Of a stretch of DNA of 20,000 nt, positions 3,574 to 19,238 are shown one piece after another. Under the pieces are notes generated by a model. It ran no database searches. It had not been told where the DNA came from and saw only the letters and a program-made list of their open reading frames with translations. A program made the position numbers and the translations under genes. This DNA comes from an uncultured virus (IMG/VR IMGVR_UViG_3300028887_000111) (taxonomy: Duplodnaviria; Heunggongvirae; Uroviricota; Caudoviricetes). Every line of letters begins with the position of its first letter. Within the stretch, counting starts at the first letter, position 1. The DNA is taken from positions 52,740-72,739 of the IMG/VR virus record IMGVR_UViG_3300028887_000111; one strand, given 5' to 3'.

Positions 3574-4710
3574 TCAAACAACCTTGATGCCAGTAATTTC
3601 TTCAAACACACTTGCATCAAAATTAGGAATATCCTTGACTGCAACTCTTTCATCTTCTGTCATATTATCCCACATAATACCACAAGCTGTTTTGAAATCA
3701 ACCGATTTGAGATAACCGCCAGTTGTTTCGTGTTCAGGATGTGCTTCTTTTTCTTCCGCCGTCATATTCTCACTGTAAATCCACCAGTCGTTCTCATACT
3801 TCCAATCCATAGCTCTTACAGCTAAGTTGCTATTAAAAGCATTTCTGTCAATATCTAATGGCTTGTTGAAAGCGCATAACGGTTGCTCAATTGAATTAAA
3901 AAAGCCAGTAGAGAAATCACCGCTGTTCCAATCACCGCTGTTCCAATTGCCGCTGTTGCAATTACCGCTGTTGTAATCACCGCTGTTGCGATTGCCGCTG
4001 TTCCAATTACCGCTGTTGTAATCACCGCTGTTGTAATCACCGCTGTTGCAATTACCGCTGTTGTAATCACCGCTGTTGCGATTACCGCTGTTGTAATCAC
4101 CGCTGTTGTAATCACCGCTGTTGCAATTACCGCTGTTGCAATTACCGCTGTTGTAATCACCGCTGTTGCAATTACCGCTGTTGCAATTACCGCTGTTGTA
4201 ATCACCGCTGTTGCGATTACCGCTGTTGCAATTACCGCTGTTGTAATCACCGCTGTTGTAATCACCGCTGTTGCAATTACCGCTGTTGTAATCACCGCTG
4301 TTGCGATTACCGCTGTTGCAATTACCGCTGTTGTAATCACCGCTGTTGCGATTACCGCTGTTGCAATTACCGCTGTTGCGATTACCGCTGTTGCGATTGC
4401 CCGTACAGTCCTTTCCTGTATTGGCTAAATCAAGAACCTCGTGCCAAGTAAGCTCCCTTAAAATTACGATTTCATCTGTGACGGATTTATCGCCTTTAGT
4501 CTCAACATTACCGATAGCTTCGACTTCTGCAACCTTATTGTTGCTGTTAAAGCCGTAATAATTGAAGCAATCTGAGACCTTCCGGCAGAAGTGAAATCCT
4601 GCACCACACATCTCAATATTGCCATCGTGCTTGAAAGTTTTGCCAACCTCGTACTGAAAACCTCTGCAAGTCCAGTCAGGGTTGAACACTTTGTAGCCTT
4701 TAATACTCAC
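3574..4710 (-). CDS. Pentapeptide (xNSG[N/D]) repeat protein, 378 aa
   Basis: N-terminal KGYKVFNPDWTCRGFQYEVG...GFHFC domain, 32 NSG-containing pentapeptides, globular C-terminus; GTG start with SD AAGGAGG. Confidence 0.88.
   Translation of the reverse strand: MSIKGYKVFNPDWTCRGFQYEVGKTFKHDGNIEMCGAGFHFCRKVSDCFNYYGFNSNNKVAEVEAIGNVETKGDKSVTDEIVILRELTWHEVLDLANTGKDCTGNRNSGNRNSGNCNSGNRNSGDYNSGNCNSGNRNSGDYNSGNCNSGDYNSGDYNSGNCNSGNRNSGDYNSGNCNSGNCNSGDYNSGNCNSGNCNSGDYNSGDYNSGNRNSGDYNSGNCNSGDYNSGDYNSGNWNSGNRNSGDYNSGNCNSGNWNSGDWNSGDFSTGFFNSIEQPLCAFNKPLDIDRNAFNSNLAVRAMDWKYENDWWIYSENMTAEEKEAHPEHETTGGYLKSVDFKTACGIMWDNMTEDERVAVKDIPNFDASVFEEITGIKVV
3916..4395. repeat. Coding tandem repeat, 32 x 15 bp
   Basis: Unit AT(T/C)RCCGCTGTT+(GCA/GTA/GCG/CCA) repeated head to tail; 480 bp / 15 = 32. 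Confidence 0.97.
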
Positions 4711-4778
4711 TATTATTCCTCCTTAAAACTCAACTTTTATTTGGTTAATCATTACCGCTAATTTGTTGTCTTGTAAAT

Positions 4779-5845
4779 TTAAAACAAAGCACAGCCTTGC
4801 CTCTTAAAGTCTGCTACTGCATTATCCCATGCCTCATTATCTAAGCAACAAAGTTCTTTCAGATGCTTCTTGCAGTAAATCTTGCTTGTTCCTCTGCCGA
4901 GAAGTTTCAGATTCATTGCAAGCACATCATTCTGTCTTACGTTCCTACCGCACACTTCGCAAGTCTTGTTGAAGTATTGCAAAGCCGTATCATAGTTGTC
5001 AAGTCCTTTGTGCTCCATAAACTCTGTCACAACTTCTTCTGTTGGTTCTGGTCTAAGTAAACCACCATTCCAAGCTCCGTTTACATATTCGTCTATAGTG
5101 CAATTCAGCTTAGTCCAGCGATTCTCCTGCGCAAAGACTTTGCGCAGGATGCTGCGCCATCGGTCATACGCCATGCGATACCAATACTTATCTAATACCC
5201 AAGTGTACTTGGTGTAATACGGGCAAGCCACTGAACACCCAACTCTACTATATCCCTTACGGTATTTAGGATTTATTTCAATGCCGTTTTTAAGAATATA
5301 GAGCCATATGTCAAGCTCACTCCACTTTCTTATAGGCAAGCAACTAAACCAATCACGATCTCCCCACTTTGGATTGTGCGATATATCCTGTCGGTCTGCT
5401 CTCTGCGCTGATTCGTCATTTCTCACGCCCATAAAGAAAAGCATCTGTGGTTCACTATCAAAGTATTCTATGCTCTTACCTTCCTTGAATACTGTACAGC
5501 AACCACGGCTGAATCTTGTGGGAATGAAATGCTCTTTGAAGATGTATTTGTAGAACCCAATGTCGGGATTGATAATTGTCCAGTCTTTATGAGCTTTTAC
5601 CATTTTATAGGTATCGCCTGTATCAAGAGTAGTGTTATTGAAGTGAACACCCACATCAGGTAAAACACGAGTTACCAAATCAAGAGTTACCATGCTGTCT
5701 TTACCTGTAGATGTAAATACTACTTTCTTGTGATTCGGATAGTCCTGTATCGCCTTGTTGATAACGCTCATTGAGTCTGCAATTCTGTCATCAAGTTCCC
5801 CACTGAGCCTTGCTATGGTCTGCTGCCAAGTCTCAAATTGTTGCG
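4779..5845 (-). CDS. PAPS-reductase-family (PP-loop, Fe-S) protein, body of the gene; its 5' end is inverted at 5846-6116
   Basis: STGKDS PP-loop, RGCC, GVRNDESAQR, PIRKWS, GYSRVGCSVACP and C-terminal CEVC/CKKH. Frame stays open upstream of ATG 5771 (no SD there) through the inverted repeat, with a stop at 5868-5870. Confidence 0.9.
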
Positions 5846-6116
5846 AAAGTTTGATTTTATTGCCAATTTAGCAACGTAGAATAGGCATTTCCCAGTGAAA
5901 GGAGAATGATAATGCAACCCATCTTCAAAGAGATGATTCAAATGTGGAGCGATTTAGGTTATCCTCTGCTGATAGAGGAAGGCAAGTATTGGCTTGAAAA
6001 CCACTTCGTCTGCGGATTTACAGCCGATGGTGAACTTCACAAGCTGTATAAATACAAGGTGGCAGACGATTTAAGCATTGAGATAACGCCTTACAAGTCG
6101 AATAAAATCAAACTTT
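5846..6116. mobile_element. Putative invertible DNA segment (271 bp) bounded by perfect 16-bp inverted repeats
   Basis: AAAGTTTGATTTTATT (5846-5861) is the exact reverse complement of AATAAAATCAAACTTT (6101-6116); inversion restores an in-frame fusion. Confidence 0.85.
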
Positions 6117-6118
6117 AA
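5906..6118 (+). CDS. Inverted N-terminal fragment (68-70 aa) of the PAPS-reductase-family gene
   Basis: Only credible + strand ORF in the window; SD AAAGGAG at 5898-5904 (ATG 5912 best spaced); ends at the right inverted repeat (NKIKL*). Confidence 0.85.
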   Translation: MIMQPIFKEMIQMWSDLGYPLLIEEGKYWLENHFVCGFTADGELHKLYKYKVADDLSIEITPYKSNKIKL

Positions 6119-6423
6119 TGTCTTGTCTTTACATCAGAAAAGTCAAACTTAGGTTTATTCTTTAATTTCTCGTTGCATTCATCAATGGCTTTGTGTAGAT
6201 CGGACTTCCTACCCCATTCAATATACCCTGCAATATTTGTGATAAGATAGAATATATACATTACTACCATAGGAATATTCATAGTGCCGAGAAAGTTTAC
6301 TCCCAACCACGCTATGTTCCCTAATATCCATATCCACCAGCCAGAGCGTTTCTTATGGGCGATAAGTACATTACCGCCCAAGCTGAATACGCTGCCGAGA
6401 ATTGAAAATATTAAGACTATCAC
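6115..6423 (-). CDS. Small membrane protein, PnuC / nicotinamide-mononucleotide-transporter-like, 102 aa
   Basis: Three hydrophobic segments; K.R.GWWIWILGN..W and NIAGYIEW patterns. Confidence 0.6.
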   Translation of the reverse strand: MIVLIFSILGSVFSLGGNVLIAHKKRSGWWIWILGNIAWLGVNFLGTMNIPMVVMYIFYLITNIAGYIEWGRKSDLHKAIDECNEKLKNKPKFDFSDVKTRH

Positions 6424-7244
6424 TTCTTGTTATCCTCTGCGATTATCTCTTTTGCAAGCTTCTGAGCTGCTTCTTCAAAGGCAATTTCTTTAGCTCTCTT
6501 GCGGAGAAGATAACGCTCGTGTCTTGCCTTACGACGCTCAACGTGCCATGCTTCGTGTTCCTGTTTTTCTTCTACTGTATTAAGAACCTTGCCACAGTAG
6601 ATACAAGTGCGTGATAATTCATCTTCACATCTATTCAATTTGACAGCTTCGGCGTATGCTTTGTAAAAATTACCTCCACAAATTGCATTCGCAAGAGCTT
6701 CAAGAACACCCTGTCTTTCATCATAATCTGCCTTATCACAAGTTGCAGAACCCTTAACGGTAGTGACCTTATCAAAAACATTGCCACTAAGCAACTCAAT
6801 ATTTGTTGTCATTGTCGGGATAGTGCCGTTGCAACTCTTATCCACTCTCGTTCCTTCTGTTACATAAAATGTAAATTTCATTGAATTTTTACCTCCATTT
6901 TTTGCCGATATACCGTCGTTTGAAAATGCGTTAAAATGTTCTGCTAACTCTTTATTTAATCTCTCTGCATATTCTTCGGCTTGTTTTTCATTAAACACAT
7001 ACTCCACATTCGGGAATAACACGGATCTAATAGCTACTGGTTCAAGCGTATCTCCCCTACACCACCAACCATGATTATTTTGGCAAAGACCACCGCAGCT
7101 ATGTTTATAACCACTTTCTTCAAAATCAACTGCATAATCACCACCTGAAGAAATGCCACGAATAATGCCTACTTCACCAACTTCGACATTATCAATGTCT
7201 CTTTGAACTACATAACGCACTCTGTCTCCAACTTTAAACTCCAT
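6420..7244 (-). CDS. Hypothetical protein with N-terminal SH3-like region and C2H2-type Zn finger, 274 aa
   Basis: FKVGDRVR...GII N-terminus; CIYC-x12-H-x3-H; SD AAAGGAG. Confidence 0.7.
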   Translation of the reverse strand: MEFKVGDRVRYVVQRDIDNVEVGEVGIIRGISSGGDYAVDFEESGYKHSCGGLCQNNHGWWCRGDTLEPVAIRSVLFPNVEYVFNEKQAEEYAERLNKELAEHFNAFSNDGISAKNGGKNSMKFTFYVTEGTRVDKSCNGTIPTMTTNIELLSGNVFDKVTTVKGSATCDKADYDERQGVLEALANAICGGNFYKAYAEAVKLNRCEDELSRTCIYCGKVLNTVEEKQEHEAWHVERRKARHERYLLRKRAKEIAFEEAAQKLAKEIIAEDNKK

Positions 7245-7315: not shown

Positions 7316-7344
7316 ATTATAACACATAAATATTAGAATGTCAA
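7316..7344 (-). promoter_or_regulatory. Consensus sigma70/sigmaA promoter
   Basis: Minus strand TTGACA (7344-7339), 17-nt spacer, TATAAT (7321-7316), with extended -10 TG. Confidence 0.85.
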
Positions 7345-16637: not shown

Positions 16638-16666
16638 TCATTGTTCACCTCCAATAAAATGCAACT

Positions 16667-16987
16667 TTAATATACAACCCAGTCCATCGGGTGTTCTGCC
16701 GCAACTCTGTTCCCGTTTGAAAATGGACAATGGTCGAGAAAAGCACACTTATTACAGTAGTAATTATTTTTGCACTCTGTTTTAATCAGGCTAAACGGAT
16801 TTGCCTTCCACTCTTTAAGTTCCGTAAGCCATTCTGCAATCTGCCTAGAATAAGCAGAACACTCAGAACACTCATCTATATACTCTTTAATTGGAGTACC
16901 CGCCAAATTATTTTTAATATTTTTAATTATTGCTTCTTGCTGATCTGCAAGTCTTTCACAATCGTTTATAGTTTGTTCAAGCGTCAT
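16667..16987 (-). CDS. Hypothetical Cys-rich protein (likely start MTLEQ)
   Basis: SD AGGAG at 16996-17000; RQIAEWLTELKE motif shared with 17686-18087. Confidence 0.65.
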   Translation of the reverse strand: MTLEQTINDCERLADQQEAIIKNIKNNLAGTPIKEYIDECSECSAYSRQIAEWLTELKEWKANPFSLIKTECKNNYYCNKCAFLDHCPFSNGNRVAAEHPMDWVVY

Positions 16988-18775: not shown

Positions 18776-18803
18776 AATAAACCTCCTTAATAAAACAAGA
18801 CTT

Positions 18804-19238
18804 TCATTTTATTGCATCACTTATAACAGATATAAAATCTGACCACTGACGCTTCTTTTTATCATTTTCAACTGTTTCATTATCATTTCGGTGATACCAA
18901 TATCCACCAGCTTTATTAAGAATATCATCTGGAAGTTTTCTATGTTTACAACATCTATATCCACGCATAATGATTTTCTTATTATTCCTATACTGAATAA
19001 AGTGAGCAATTCCGTCACAAGAAATATCTGAGTCTGATTCCGTATGATAATCTACATAATCAATTTCCAACAACTCTCTTGCTTGAAGATTTTCTTTGTA
19101 ACAATAATAACGTGAAATCCCATCATTATATATGCACTCACTTGGGCAATAAATATAGAGAACGTTGTCATCCTCGGTCTGCAAAATCAACATATCATCA
19201 AACCATCTATACATATAGTTTTTAACATTTACTCTCAT
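18804..19238 (-). CDS. Hypothetical protein, 144 aa
   Basis: SD GAGGTG; overlap with the upstream stop. Confidence 0.65.
   Translation of the reverse strand: MRVNVKNYMYRWFDDMLILQTEDDNVLYIYCPSECIYNDGISRYYCYKENLQARELLEIDYVDYHTESDSDISCDGIAHFIQYRNNKKIIMRGYRCCKHRKLPDDILNKAGGYWYHRNDNETVENDKKKRQWSDFISVISDAIK

Follow-up and report, generated by a model that had tools for sequence, protein, structure and literature searches.

A repeat-bounded inversion that divides a PAPS-reductase-family gene in rumen and human-gut phages

In a 72,739-bp rumen phage record of IMG/VR, a gene of the PAPS-reductase family is divided in two by the inversion of a 271-bp segment lying between perfect 16-nt inverted repeats. 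The breakpoints fall inside the repeat arms, the arms are conserved in both orientations of the segment in four phage clades, the inversion has recurred, and both pieces of the gene are intact. It is rather likely that the locus is a conserved, recurrently flipping partial-intergenic inverton and that the window, the 20,000-nt stretch of DNA analysed here, holds it in the OFF state. Programmed on/off inversion is a familiar phenomenon in bacteria; for phages, to our knowledge, the known examples are essentially tail-fibre (host-range) segments. If the proposal is true, phage populations would be hedging their bets on a function inside the cell, probably nucleic-acid modification.

The repeat pair and the divided gene

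The window is the terminal 20 kb of its record, which is classed as linear and 73% complete, and all of its long open reading frames (ORFs) lie on the - strand. A sequence-only reading had picked out a perfect 16-bp inverted repeat (Table 1), and the two arms are indeed 100% complementary over 16 nt each and 239 nt apart. Over all 72,739 bp this is the longest perfect inverted repeat with a loop of 30-2000 nt. The pair exceeds chance expectation. Inverted repeats of 16 nt or more arose at a mean of 0.025 per genome in 40 first-order Markov simulations of the record, and in 25 random windows of the same size around the locus the best perfect repeat reached 10 nt at most.

Table 1. Features of the invertible segment and its surroundings, in window positions
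Feature	Position	Strand	Description
Inverted-repeat arm adjoining the catalytic body	5846-5861		AAAGTTTGATTTTATT; encodes NKIKL on the - strand
Inverted-repeat arm adjoining the PnuC-like gene	6101-6116		AATAAAATCAAACTTT; overlaps the PnuC-like stop codon (6115-6117)
Invertible segment including arms	5846-6116		271 bp; gene-splitting (flipped) orientation in the window
Ribosome-binding site of the gene head	5898-5904	+	AAAGGAG, 7 nt 5' of the ATG at 5912 (the start of P0001)
ORF of the detached gene head	5906-6118	+	70 aa, MIMQPIFKEM...SNKIKL; codons 1-68, stop supplied by the flank
In-frame stop closing the body frame on its 5' side	5868-5870	-	TAA
Catalytic body	4779-5867	-	PP-loop domain and Cys-rich C-terminal part; 362 aa stop to stop
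Gene for PnuC-like small membrane protein	6115-6423	-	102 aa; upstream, same operon; PF04973, E 1.4e-9; phrog_1880
Sigma-70-type promoter sequence	7316-7344	-	TTGACA, 17 nt, TATAAT, with TG; 12/12, by consensus match only

The ribosome-binding site and the 70-aa + strand ORF that had been reported inside the repeat are both present. This detached head comprises the N-terminal domain and linker of the PAPS-reductase-family gene. The body was said to have no Shine-Dalgarno sequence and to be closed by an in-frame stop, and this too holds: the TAA stands on the - strand, and the window sequence has no AGGAGG-like motif 5' of the ATG at 5771, from which the body ORF runs for 330 aa (4779-5771, - strand). 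When the segment was reverse-complemented by script, a single - strand frame of 432 aa from stop to stop was obtained with no base gained or lost. It yields 425 aa from the first ATG and 423 aa from the second, which lies 7 nt past GGAG (5901-5904), in agreement with the 423-425 aa that had been forecast for the inverted arrangement.

The colinear arrangement is the common one among homologous proteins. A search with the body retrieved 882 relatives, and most of the best 120 are 410-430 aa long. The closest among the matches listed, P0001, has 423 aa, is 95% identical and includes 147 member sequences. In P0001 the head is fused colinearly to the body (MQPIFKEM...PNKIKLSQQFETW..., unbroken), and 65 of 68 N-terminal residues are those of the + strand ORF; since this colinear protein has a nearly identical head, the window gene carries its head reversed. 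Full-length homologues covering both parts had been proposed as a check on the split, and the lengths of the best matches together with the coverage of P0001 support it. Judged from these comparisons, the colinear protein of about 423 aa appears to be the normal or ancestral form.

A search with the 70-aa head found 22 clusters of small stand-alone proteins, 12 of which depart from the full-length sequence right after N[KE]IKL and 5 more within the same linker. These stand-alone heads bear at least nine different tails, representing nine upstream contexts besides that of the window. The tails of P0127, P0123 and P0130 equal a virtual flip of the colinear locus L002, so the L002-type upstream context is known in both states. 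Database proteins of 303-339 aa begin at internal positions that a gene caller picks in the flipped locus L070; a naturally short enzyme devoid of the N-terminal domain was rejected on this ground, and these forms therefore probably come from flipped loci. INPHARED gave no match to positions 4700-6500 (blastn, distant mode) or to the 70-aa head (tblastn).

Allowing up to 3 mismatches, the window has 8 occurrences of the arm motif where 0.9 would be expected. A multi-site regulon of a recombinase was considered and dropped, as the exact 11-nt core is present as one pair and at most one single copy per relative genome. Three of the other matches were inspected and rejected as recombination sites; they are A+T-rich sequences of the type ...TTTTATT directly 5' of ribosome-binding sites. 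Loose copies at 16653-16668 and in the overlapping pair 18789-18804 / 18798-18813 consist of ...TTTTATT followed by the GGAGG of other genes, and 18789-18813 forms a small dyad, AATAAAA..TTTTATT. From their sequence, such copies look like a common intergenic feature preceding ribosome-binding sites in this phage rather than recombination sites.

A second perfect inverted repeat, the 13-nt CTCTTTGAAGATG, occurs at 5532-5544 in the body and at 5920-5932 in the detached head, both copies coding for ..IFKE... These would be direct repeats in the colinear gene and could permit a deletion there, or a further inversion in the flipped state.

Two neighbouring genes deserve description. The PnuC-like protein aligns only to positions 113-174 of 175, the final third, of the NMN transporter model, and by this alignment its 102-aa product appears to be a truncated or minimal membrane protein and not a full transporter. 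Downstream of the switch, at 3574-4710 on the - strand, a gene encodes a DUF7666 domain and then an extended array of pentapeptide-type repeats (NSGN/NSGD units). A homologous DUF7666 gene in the relative G005 (locus L148) adjoins a tyrosine recombinase gene.

Orientation of the segment across phage clades

The N-terminal and body parts of full-length homologues were compared with 132 loci and the window. Head and body are encoded on different strands in the window, L003, L004 (= L058), L036 (= L128), L070, L072, L071, L099 and L107. All of these except L036 fall in the four clades of Table 2. L003 (99 kb) and L004 (105 kb), which come from other metagenomes, are complete phage records bearing direct terminal repeats, and they have the same arms as the window with the head flipped.

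Table 2. Repeat arms and segment orientation in four phage clades
Clade	Arm	Perfect repeat	Flipped	Colinear
A, rumen	AAAGTTTGATTTTATT	15-17 nt	window, L003, L004	L002, L054, L055, L057, L060, L061
B, including human-gut contigs	AGTTGATTTTATT	12-13 nt	L070, L072	13 loci
C, including human-gut contigs	AAACTTGATTTTATTGTG	18 nt	L071	9 loci
D	(A)A(T/A)CCAATCTTTCA	11 nt	L099, L107	L102, L089, L026

In the window, L003, L004, L070, L071, L072, L099 and L107 the flanks are exchanged exactly at the arms, and in nine of nine flipped loci an inter-arm flip restores a frame of 426-438 aa. The colinear relatives of clade A have five upstream contexts, which part from one another precisely where the outer arm ends on its outward side. 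In clade A the inner arm occupies codons 64-69 (P0001 numbering) and the outer arm lies behind the stop codon of the upstream gene. The locus thus has one arm inside and one outside coding sequence, the arrangement by which partial-intergenic invertons are defined; like invertons generally, its segment is bounded by repeats with the breakpoints inside the arms, and both orientations exist in natural populations, colinear and flipped forms being found at 95-99% identity.

The arm core TTGATTTTATT is common to clades A-C; the arms of clade D and of L036 are unrelated to it in sequence. The in-gene arm reads NKIKL in clade A versus TIKS, in a different frame, in clade C, and in clade B it is shifted by about 20 codons towards the C-terminus relative to clade A. 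Because its position and frame vary among clades A-C, what is conserved is a DNA repeat paired with an upstream copy, not a peptide.

In L036 codons ~23-76 are inverted, so that the inversion is fully intragenic; its arms are imperfect (16/19) and absent from relatives, and the event may be accidental. L036 and L041 are paralogues in one 172,909-bp phage record, 83% identical in the body, and L041 is intact. In clade B, a second and distant PAPS-reductase-family gene, of 348 aa with a classical SGGKDS motif, lies directly downstream of the switchable gene (L070, 3500-4546; also in L072), and the clade B switch may toggle one of two paralogous activities.

The flip has occurred more than once. 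In clade C 1-3 substitutions in 972 nt separate the body of flipped L071 from the bodies of colinear L013 and L069; in clade D flipped L107 and colinear L102 share 99% identity. In clade B, L070 and L072 match colinear L010 and L011 throughout the head; in clade A the same holds for L003 and colinear L057. The body tree places the two flipped clade B loci on separate branches, a paraphyletic set, and flipped copies are found in at least 10 upstream contexts (that of the window and the nine tails). A single ancestral inversion is contradicted by the paraphyly in clade B, by the near-identical flipped and colinear pairs of clades C and D, and by the ten upstream contexts. The sequence-only reading had offered a phase-variable switch or a one-off inversion as alternatives. 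The inversion itself, and its recurrence across four clades, have stood; the one-off event finds no support, as the same flip is present in L003, L004 and run X2. That the repeat-bearing clades A-D hold both orientations supports the reading of the split as a flip of phase-variable type.

Among distinct loci, 8 of 39 with the repeat are flipped versus 1 of 77 without it (Fisher p 6.5e-4), a rough figure only, flipped cases having served to define the motifs and the loci being interrelated.

Comparison of the window with L003, likewise flipped, gives Sd 6.5 and Nd 3.5 (omega 0.11) for the head and Sd 33 and Nd 6 (omega 0.04) for the body, and in the flipped contig of run X2 third codon positions hold 33 of the 38 listed body differences. 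By these substitution patterns, both gene pieces appear intact and under purifying selection. As no decay is seen in the flipped pieces, the state must be transient or else the pieces are still functional; a gene permanently dead would be expected to look different.

Independent assemblies in the form of Logan contigs contain both arrangements. Run X2, from another study, contributes a 41.9-kb contig that is flipped like the window across both arms, with 80 of 1,555 bases different. A contig of run X3, also from another study, spans the right-hand flipped junction, and in X3 flipped and colinear-type junctions occur together, each with a different upstream context (in Logan contigs, not raw reads). 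Two contigs of run X19 have the opposite-strand joints 5845|6116 and 5861|6100, which correspond to the colinear gene. Run X1 gave the flipped form only, in a single Logan contig of a kind that drops rare variants, and in no run were both orientations seen in one haplotype among the Logan contigs, which again drop rare variants. For the same reason, parts of the locus left uncovered in X2, X3 and X19 count neither for nor against a flip. The contig of L053, and unitigs of X3 and X19 (at 5861-5874), stop at or beside the arms, as expected if assembly graphs branch where contexts or orientations coexist.

Expression, recombinases and rival explanations

The promoter sequence of Table 1 precedes a 274-aa gene, the PnuC-like gene and the PAPS-reductase-family gene, and from its position it is likely the operon promoter, outside the invertible segment. 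A scan with 16-18-nt spacers found no sigma-70-type promoter within the segment or on the + strand 5' of 5906. By eye, TTGATT and TAGAAT, 20 nt apart, begin in the arm, and this spacing is non-canonical. The segment therefore seems, from its motifs, to carry a translation start and not a promoter.

AlphaFold models P0001 with a mean pLDDT of 89.6. Residues 1-60 fold confidently into a small domain with one helix and four strands, and the arm maps to the low-confidence linker 61-74; in the model this linker looks able to accommodate a sequence that a DNA site imposes. Some residues of the N-terminal domain are invariant in all of 63 homologues. The internal ATG of the clade A body precedes the STGKDS PP-loop motif, and residual activity may persist in the flipped state. 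The detached body of clades B and C has its first ATG after this motif, and in L070 a TTG directly before it gives a 313-aa ORF lacking the N-terminal domain and the following helix. From the arrangement of starts and stops, the flipped state would be functionally OFF.

As we picture the inverton, recombination between the arms would reverse codons 1-68 along with the start codon and ribosome-binding site. With the segment colinear (ON), the 423-aa enzyme would be translated from the operon transcript; with it flipped (OFF), the body would be left with no ribosome-binding site, its frame closed on the 5' side by the stop, and the head would be reversed. The flip would be frequent enough that near-identical phages commonly show both states. 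The same molecule lineage would presumably flip back, a site-specific recombinase of the phage or the host would catalyse the exchange, and the benefit could lie in bet-hedging over a nucleic-acid-modifying activity.

No serine recombinase (PF00239) was matched in the record of the window and five relatives, six records in all. Tyrosine recombinases (PF00589) were matched in all 10 of the relatives' records searched, and none was matched in the window's record, which is 73% complete. In no locus examined does a recombinase gene adjoin the switch. An Xer-like tyrosine recombinase of 343-392 aa, at least 63% identical, occurs in clade A (G001, G002), in one clade B record (G003) and in clade C (G004, G005, G017). 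Four clade B records (83-98% complete) lack it, and copies at 44-46% identity occur in two phages lacking the repeat. No single recombinase orthologue common to all repeat-bearing phages was found. Nor was the arm core found paired elsewhere in five near-complete relatives, and so there is no regulon that points to a dedicated enzyme. On its distribution, the Xer-like recombinase of the phages is only a candidate for the catalyst; a host invertase may act instead, or the arms may exchange without any recombinase.

A fuller version of the inverton proposal is possible but rather doubtful. It holds that the locus is a selected contingency locus, a 0.25-0.3-kb inverton on which an Xer-like or host recombinase acts to toggle a nucleic-acid-modifying PP-loop enzyme; bursts would contain modified and unmodified progeny, a bet-hedge in which some phages would escape restriction and others the defences that the modification or the enzyme itself sets off. 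The inversions might, on the other hand, be unprogrammed, recurring by ordinary recombination or by replication template switching at short repeats, with knock-outs that are retained because phages can do without the gene, or at times bear a cost from it, and with neither a dedicated enzyme nor selected switching. This would agree with the lack of an adjacent or universally shared recombinase among those found, with the different arms of clades A-C, clade D and L036, with the flip of L036 between imperfect arms that its relatives lack, and with the restriction of the arm core to one locus. We nevertheless regard it as unlikely. Perfect pairs of 13-18 nt have been kept in both states across clades that are ~56% identical in protein, and the re-creation of the in-gene arm at another position and in another reading frame is hard to explain without selection for pairing. 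Moreover, neither piece has decayed in the flipped copies, and flipping affects about one-fifth of repeat-bearing loci, more than breakage at homologies of 13-18 nt would readily produce.

The intactness of both pieces, and the purifying selection between two flipped genomes, would also be expected if the flipped arrangement were a working split gene, its 330-aa body being made from the internal ATG and active alone or with the separate 70-aa head. The head retains its own ribosome-binding site and receives a stop codon from the flank, and in clade A the internal ATG lies 5' of the PP-loop motif. However, that ATG has no ribosome-binding site, no + strand sigma-70-type promoter was found before 5906, and in clades B and C the first body ATG is past the PP-loop, the 313-aa ORF of L070 lacking the N-terminal domain and the next helix. 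Together with the invariant residues of the N-terminal domain in 63 homologues and the probable origin of the 303-339-aa database forms from flipped loci, this makes a split gene improbable. An artefact of assembly or library preparation, by chimeric reads or mis-joining at the repeat, is very improbable indeed. Inverted chimeras are known from amplified virome libraries, and the only exact match to the window is in run X1, which may be its own source. But the same flip is present in L003 and L004, complete records with direct terminal repeats from other metagenomes, and in the X2 and X3 contigs from other studies; the breakpoints are always inside the arms and flipping restores the frame in every one of the nine loci; and the arms, at 13-18 nt, do not reach the length of the 31-nt words used in Logan assembly. 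The recurrently flipping inverton is thus the reading that we prefer.

The enzyme family and known inversion systems

The body belongs to the PAPS-reductase PP-loop superfamily. It matches Pfam PF01507 (PAPS_reduct) with E 3e-26 and 92.8 bits against a cut-off of 22.5, and the best Foldseek matches are CysH and APS reductases (TM-score on target 0.62-0.69). It also matches PHROG 424. Scores against the models for CysH proper fall below their cut-offs (TIGR00434, 50.9 vs 165.1; TIGR02057, 39.1 vs 254.2; NF002537, 59.7 vs 154), and every NCBIfam cut-off for CysH, APS reductase and CysD was missed. On this evidence the gene should not be labelled as one of sulfate assimilation. A PADLOC match to BrxP covers only profile positions 76-358 of 779, the PAPS-reductase domain; BrxP (BREX type 4) was rejected, as the match is partial and the neighbours are phage replication genes, the PnuC-like gene and the DUF7666 gene, with no BREX neighbourhood. 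The enzyme may act on nucleic acid as a modifying enzyme.

The G segment of phage Mu (Gin) and the C segment of P1 (Cin) are kilobase-long, swap the C-termini of tail fibres and thereby host range, have an adjacent serine invertase and an enhancer, and give mixed progeny. The present element resembles them as a phage-borne inversion between inverted repeats that changes the protein made. It differs in that the segment is 271 bp long, acts as an on/off element on an enzyme and has no adjacent recombinase. A segment of the Mu Gin or P1 Cin type was rejected, there being no PF00239 match in the six records and the segment encoding the N-terminus of an enzyme. The fimS element of E. coli, ~0.3 kb with short inverted repeats, bears a promoter, lies wholly outside coding sequence and is adjacent to the FimB and FimE tyrosine recombinase genes. 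Like fimS, which is driven by tyrosine recombinases, the element described here is small, repeat-bounded and of the ON/OFF type; in contrast to fimS, it carries a ribosome-binding site and 68 codons, and its promoter is apparently outside.

The closest parallels are in bacteria. Partial-intergenic and intragenic invertons, as described in two reports, have short repeats, create a premature stop or separate ORFs on inversion and occur naturally in both orientations (Chanin et al., bioRxiv 10.1101/2023.03.11.532203, PMC10028968; Milman et al., NAR 2023, PMC9881135). In these reports the invertase is often left unassigned, some loci having no nearby recombinase gene, and the catalogues comprise bacterial and a few archaeal chromosomes, with validation by reads in clonal isolates (PMC10028968; PMC9881135). 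Viruses are named there as future work by Milman et al. (PMC9881135). The available text of the two reports makes no mention of PAPS reductase (0 occurrences in PMC9881135). The locus in the window shares with the bacterial invertons the short repeats, the position of one arm inside and the other outside the coding region, and the splitting of the gene on inversion. It differs from those described there in being phage-borne, in its presence across four rumen and human-gut phage clades, in the between-genome comparison that supports it, and in gating the translation start and N-terminal domain of an enzyme. A literature search found no paper that combines a phage PAPS reductase with DNA inversion, and among the titles and abstracts returned for invertons, phage genomes, phase variation and virome there was no phage-borne enzyme inverton.

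There are consequences for annotation. The present gene type is routinely counted as the sulfur auxiliary metabolic gene cysH, despite missing every CysH cut-off. In the flipped state the locus yields a head ORF of 70-117 aa and a body ORF of 303-339 aa, which resemble truncated or orphan genes in catalogues.

A recombinant relative, L059 (P0020), has a head like that of clade A and a body only 64% identical. Its outer arm (2436-2450) is kept, and its in-gene arm (codons 62-67) is degraded to 12/14. A stand-alone head of the L059/P0020 type, P0134, is present in the database.
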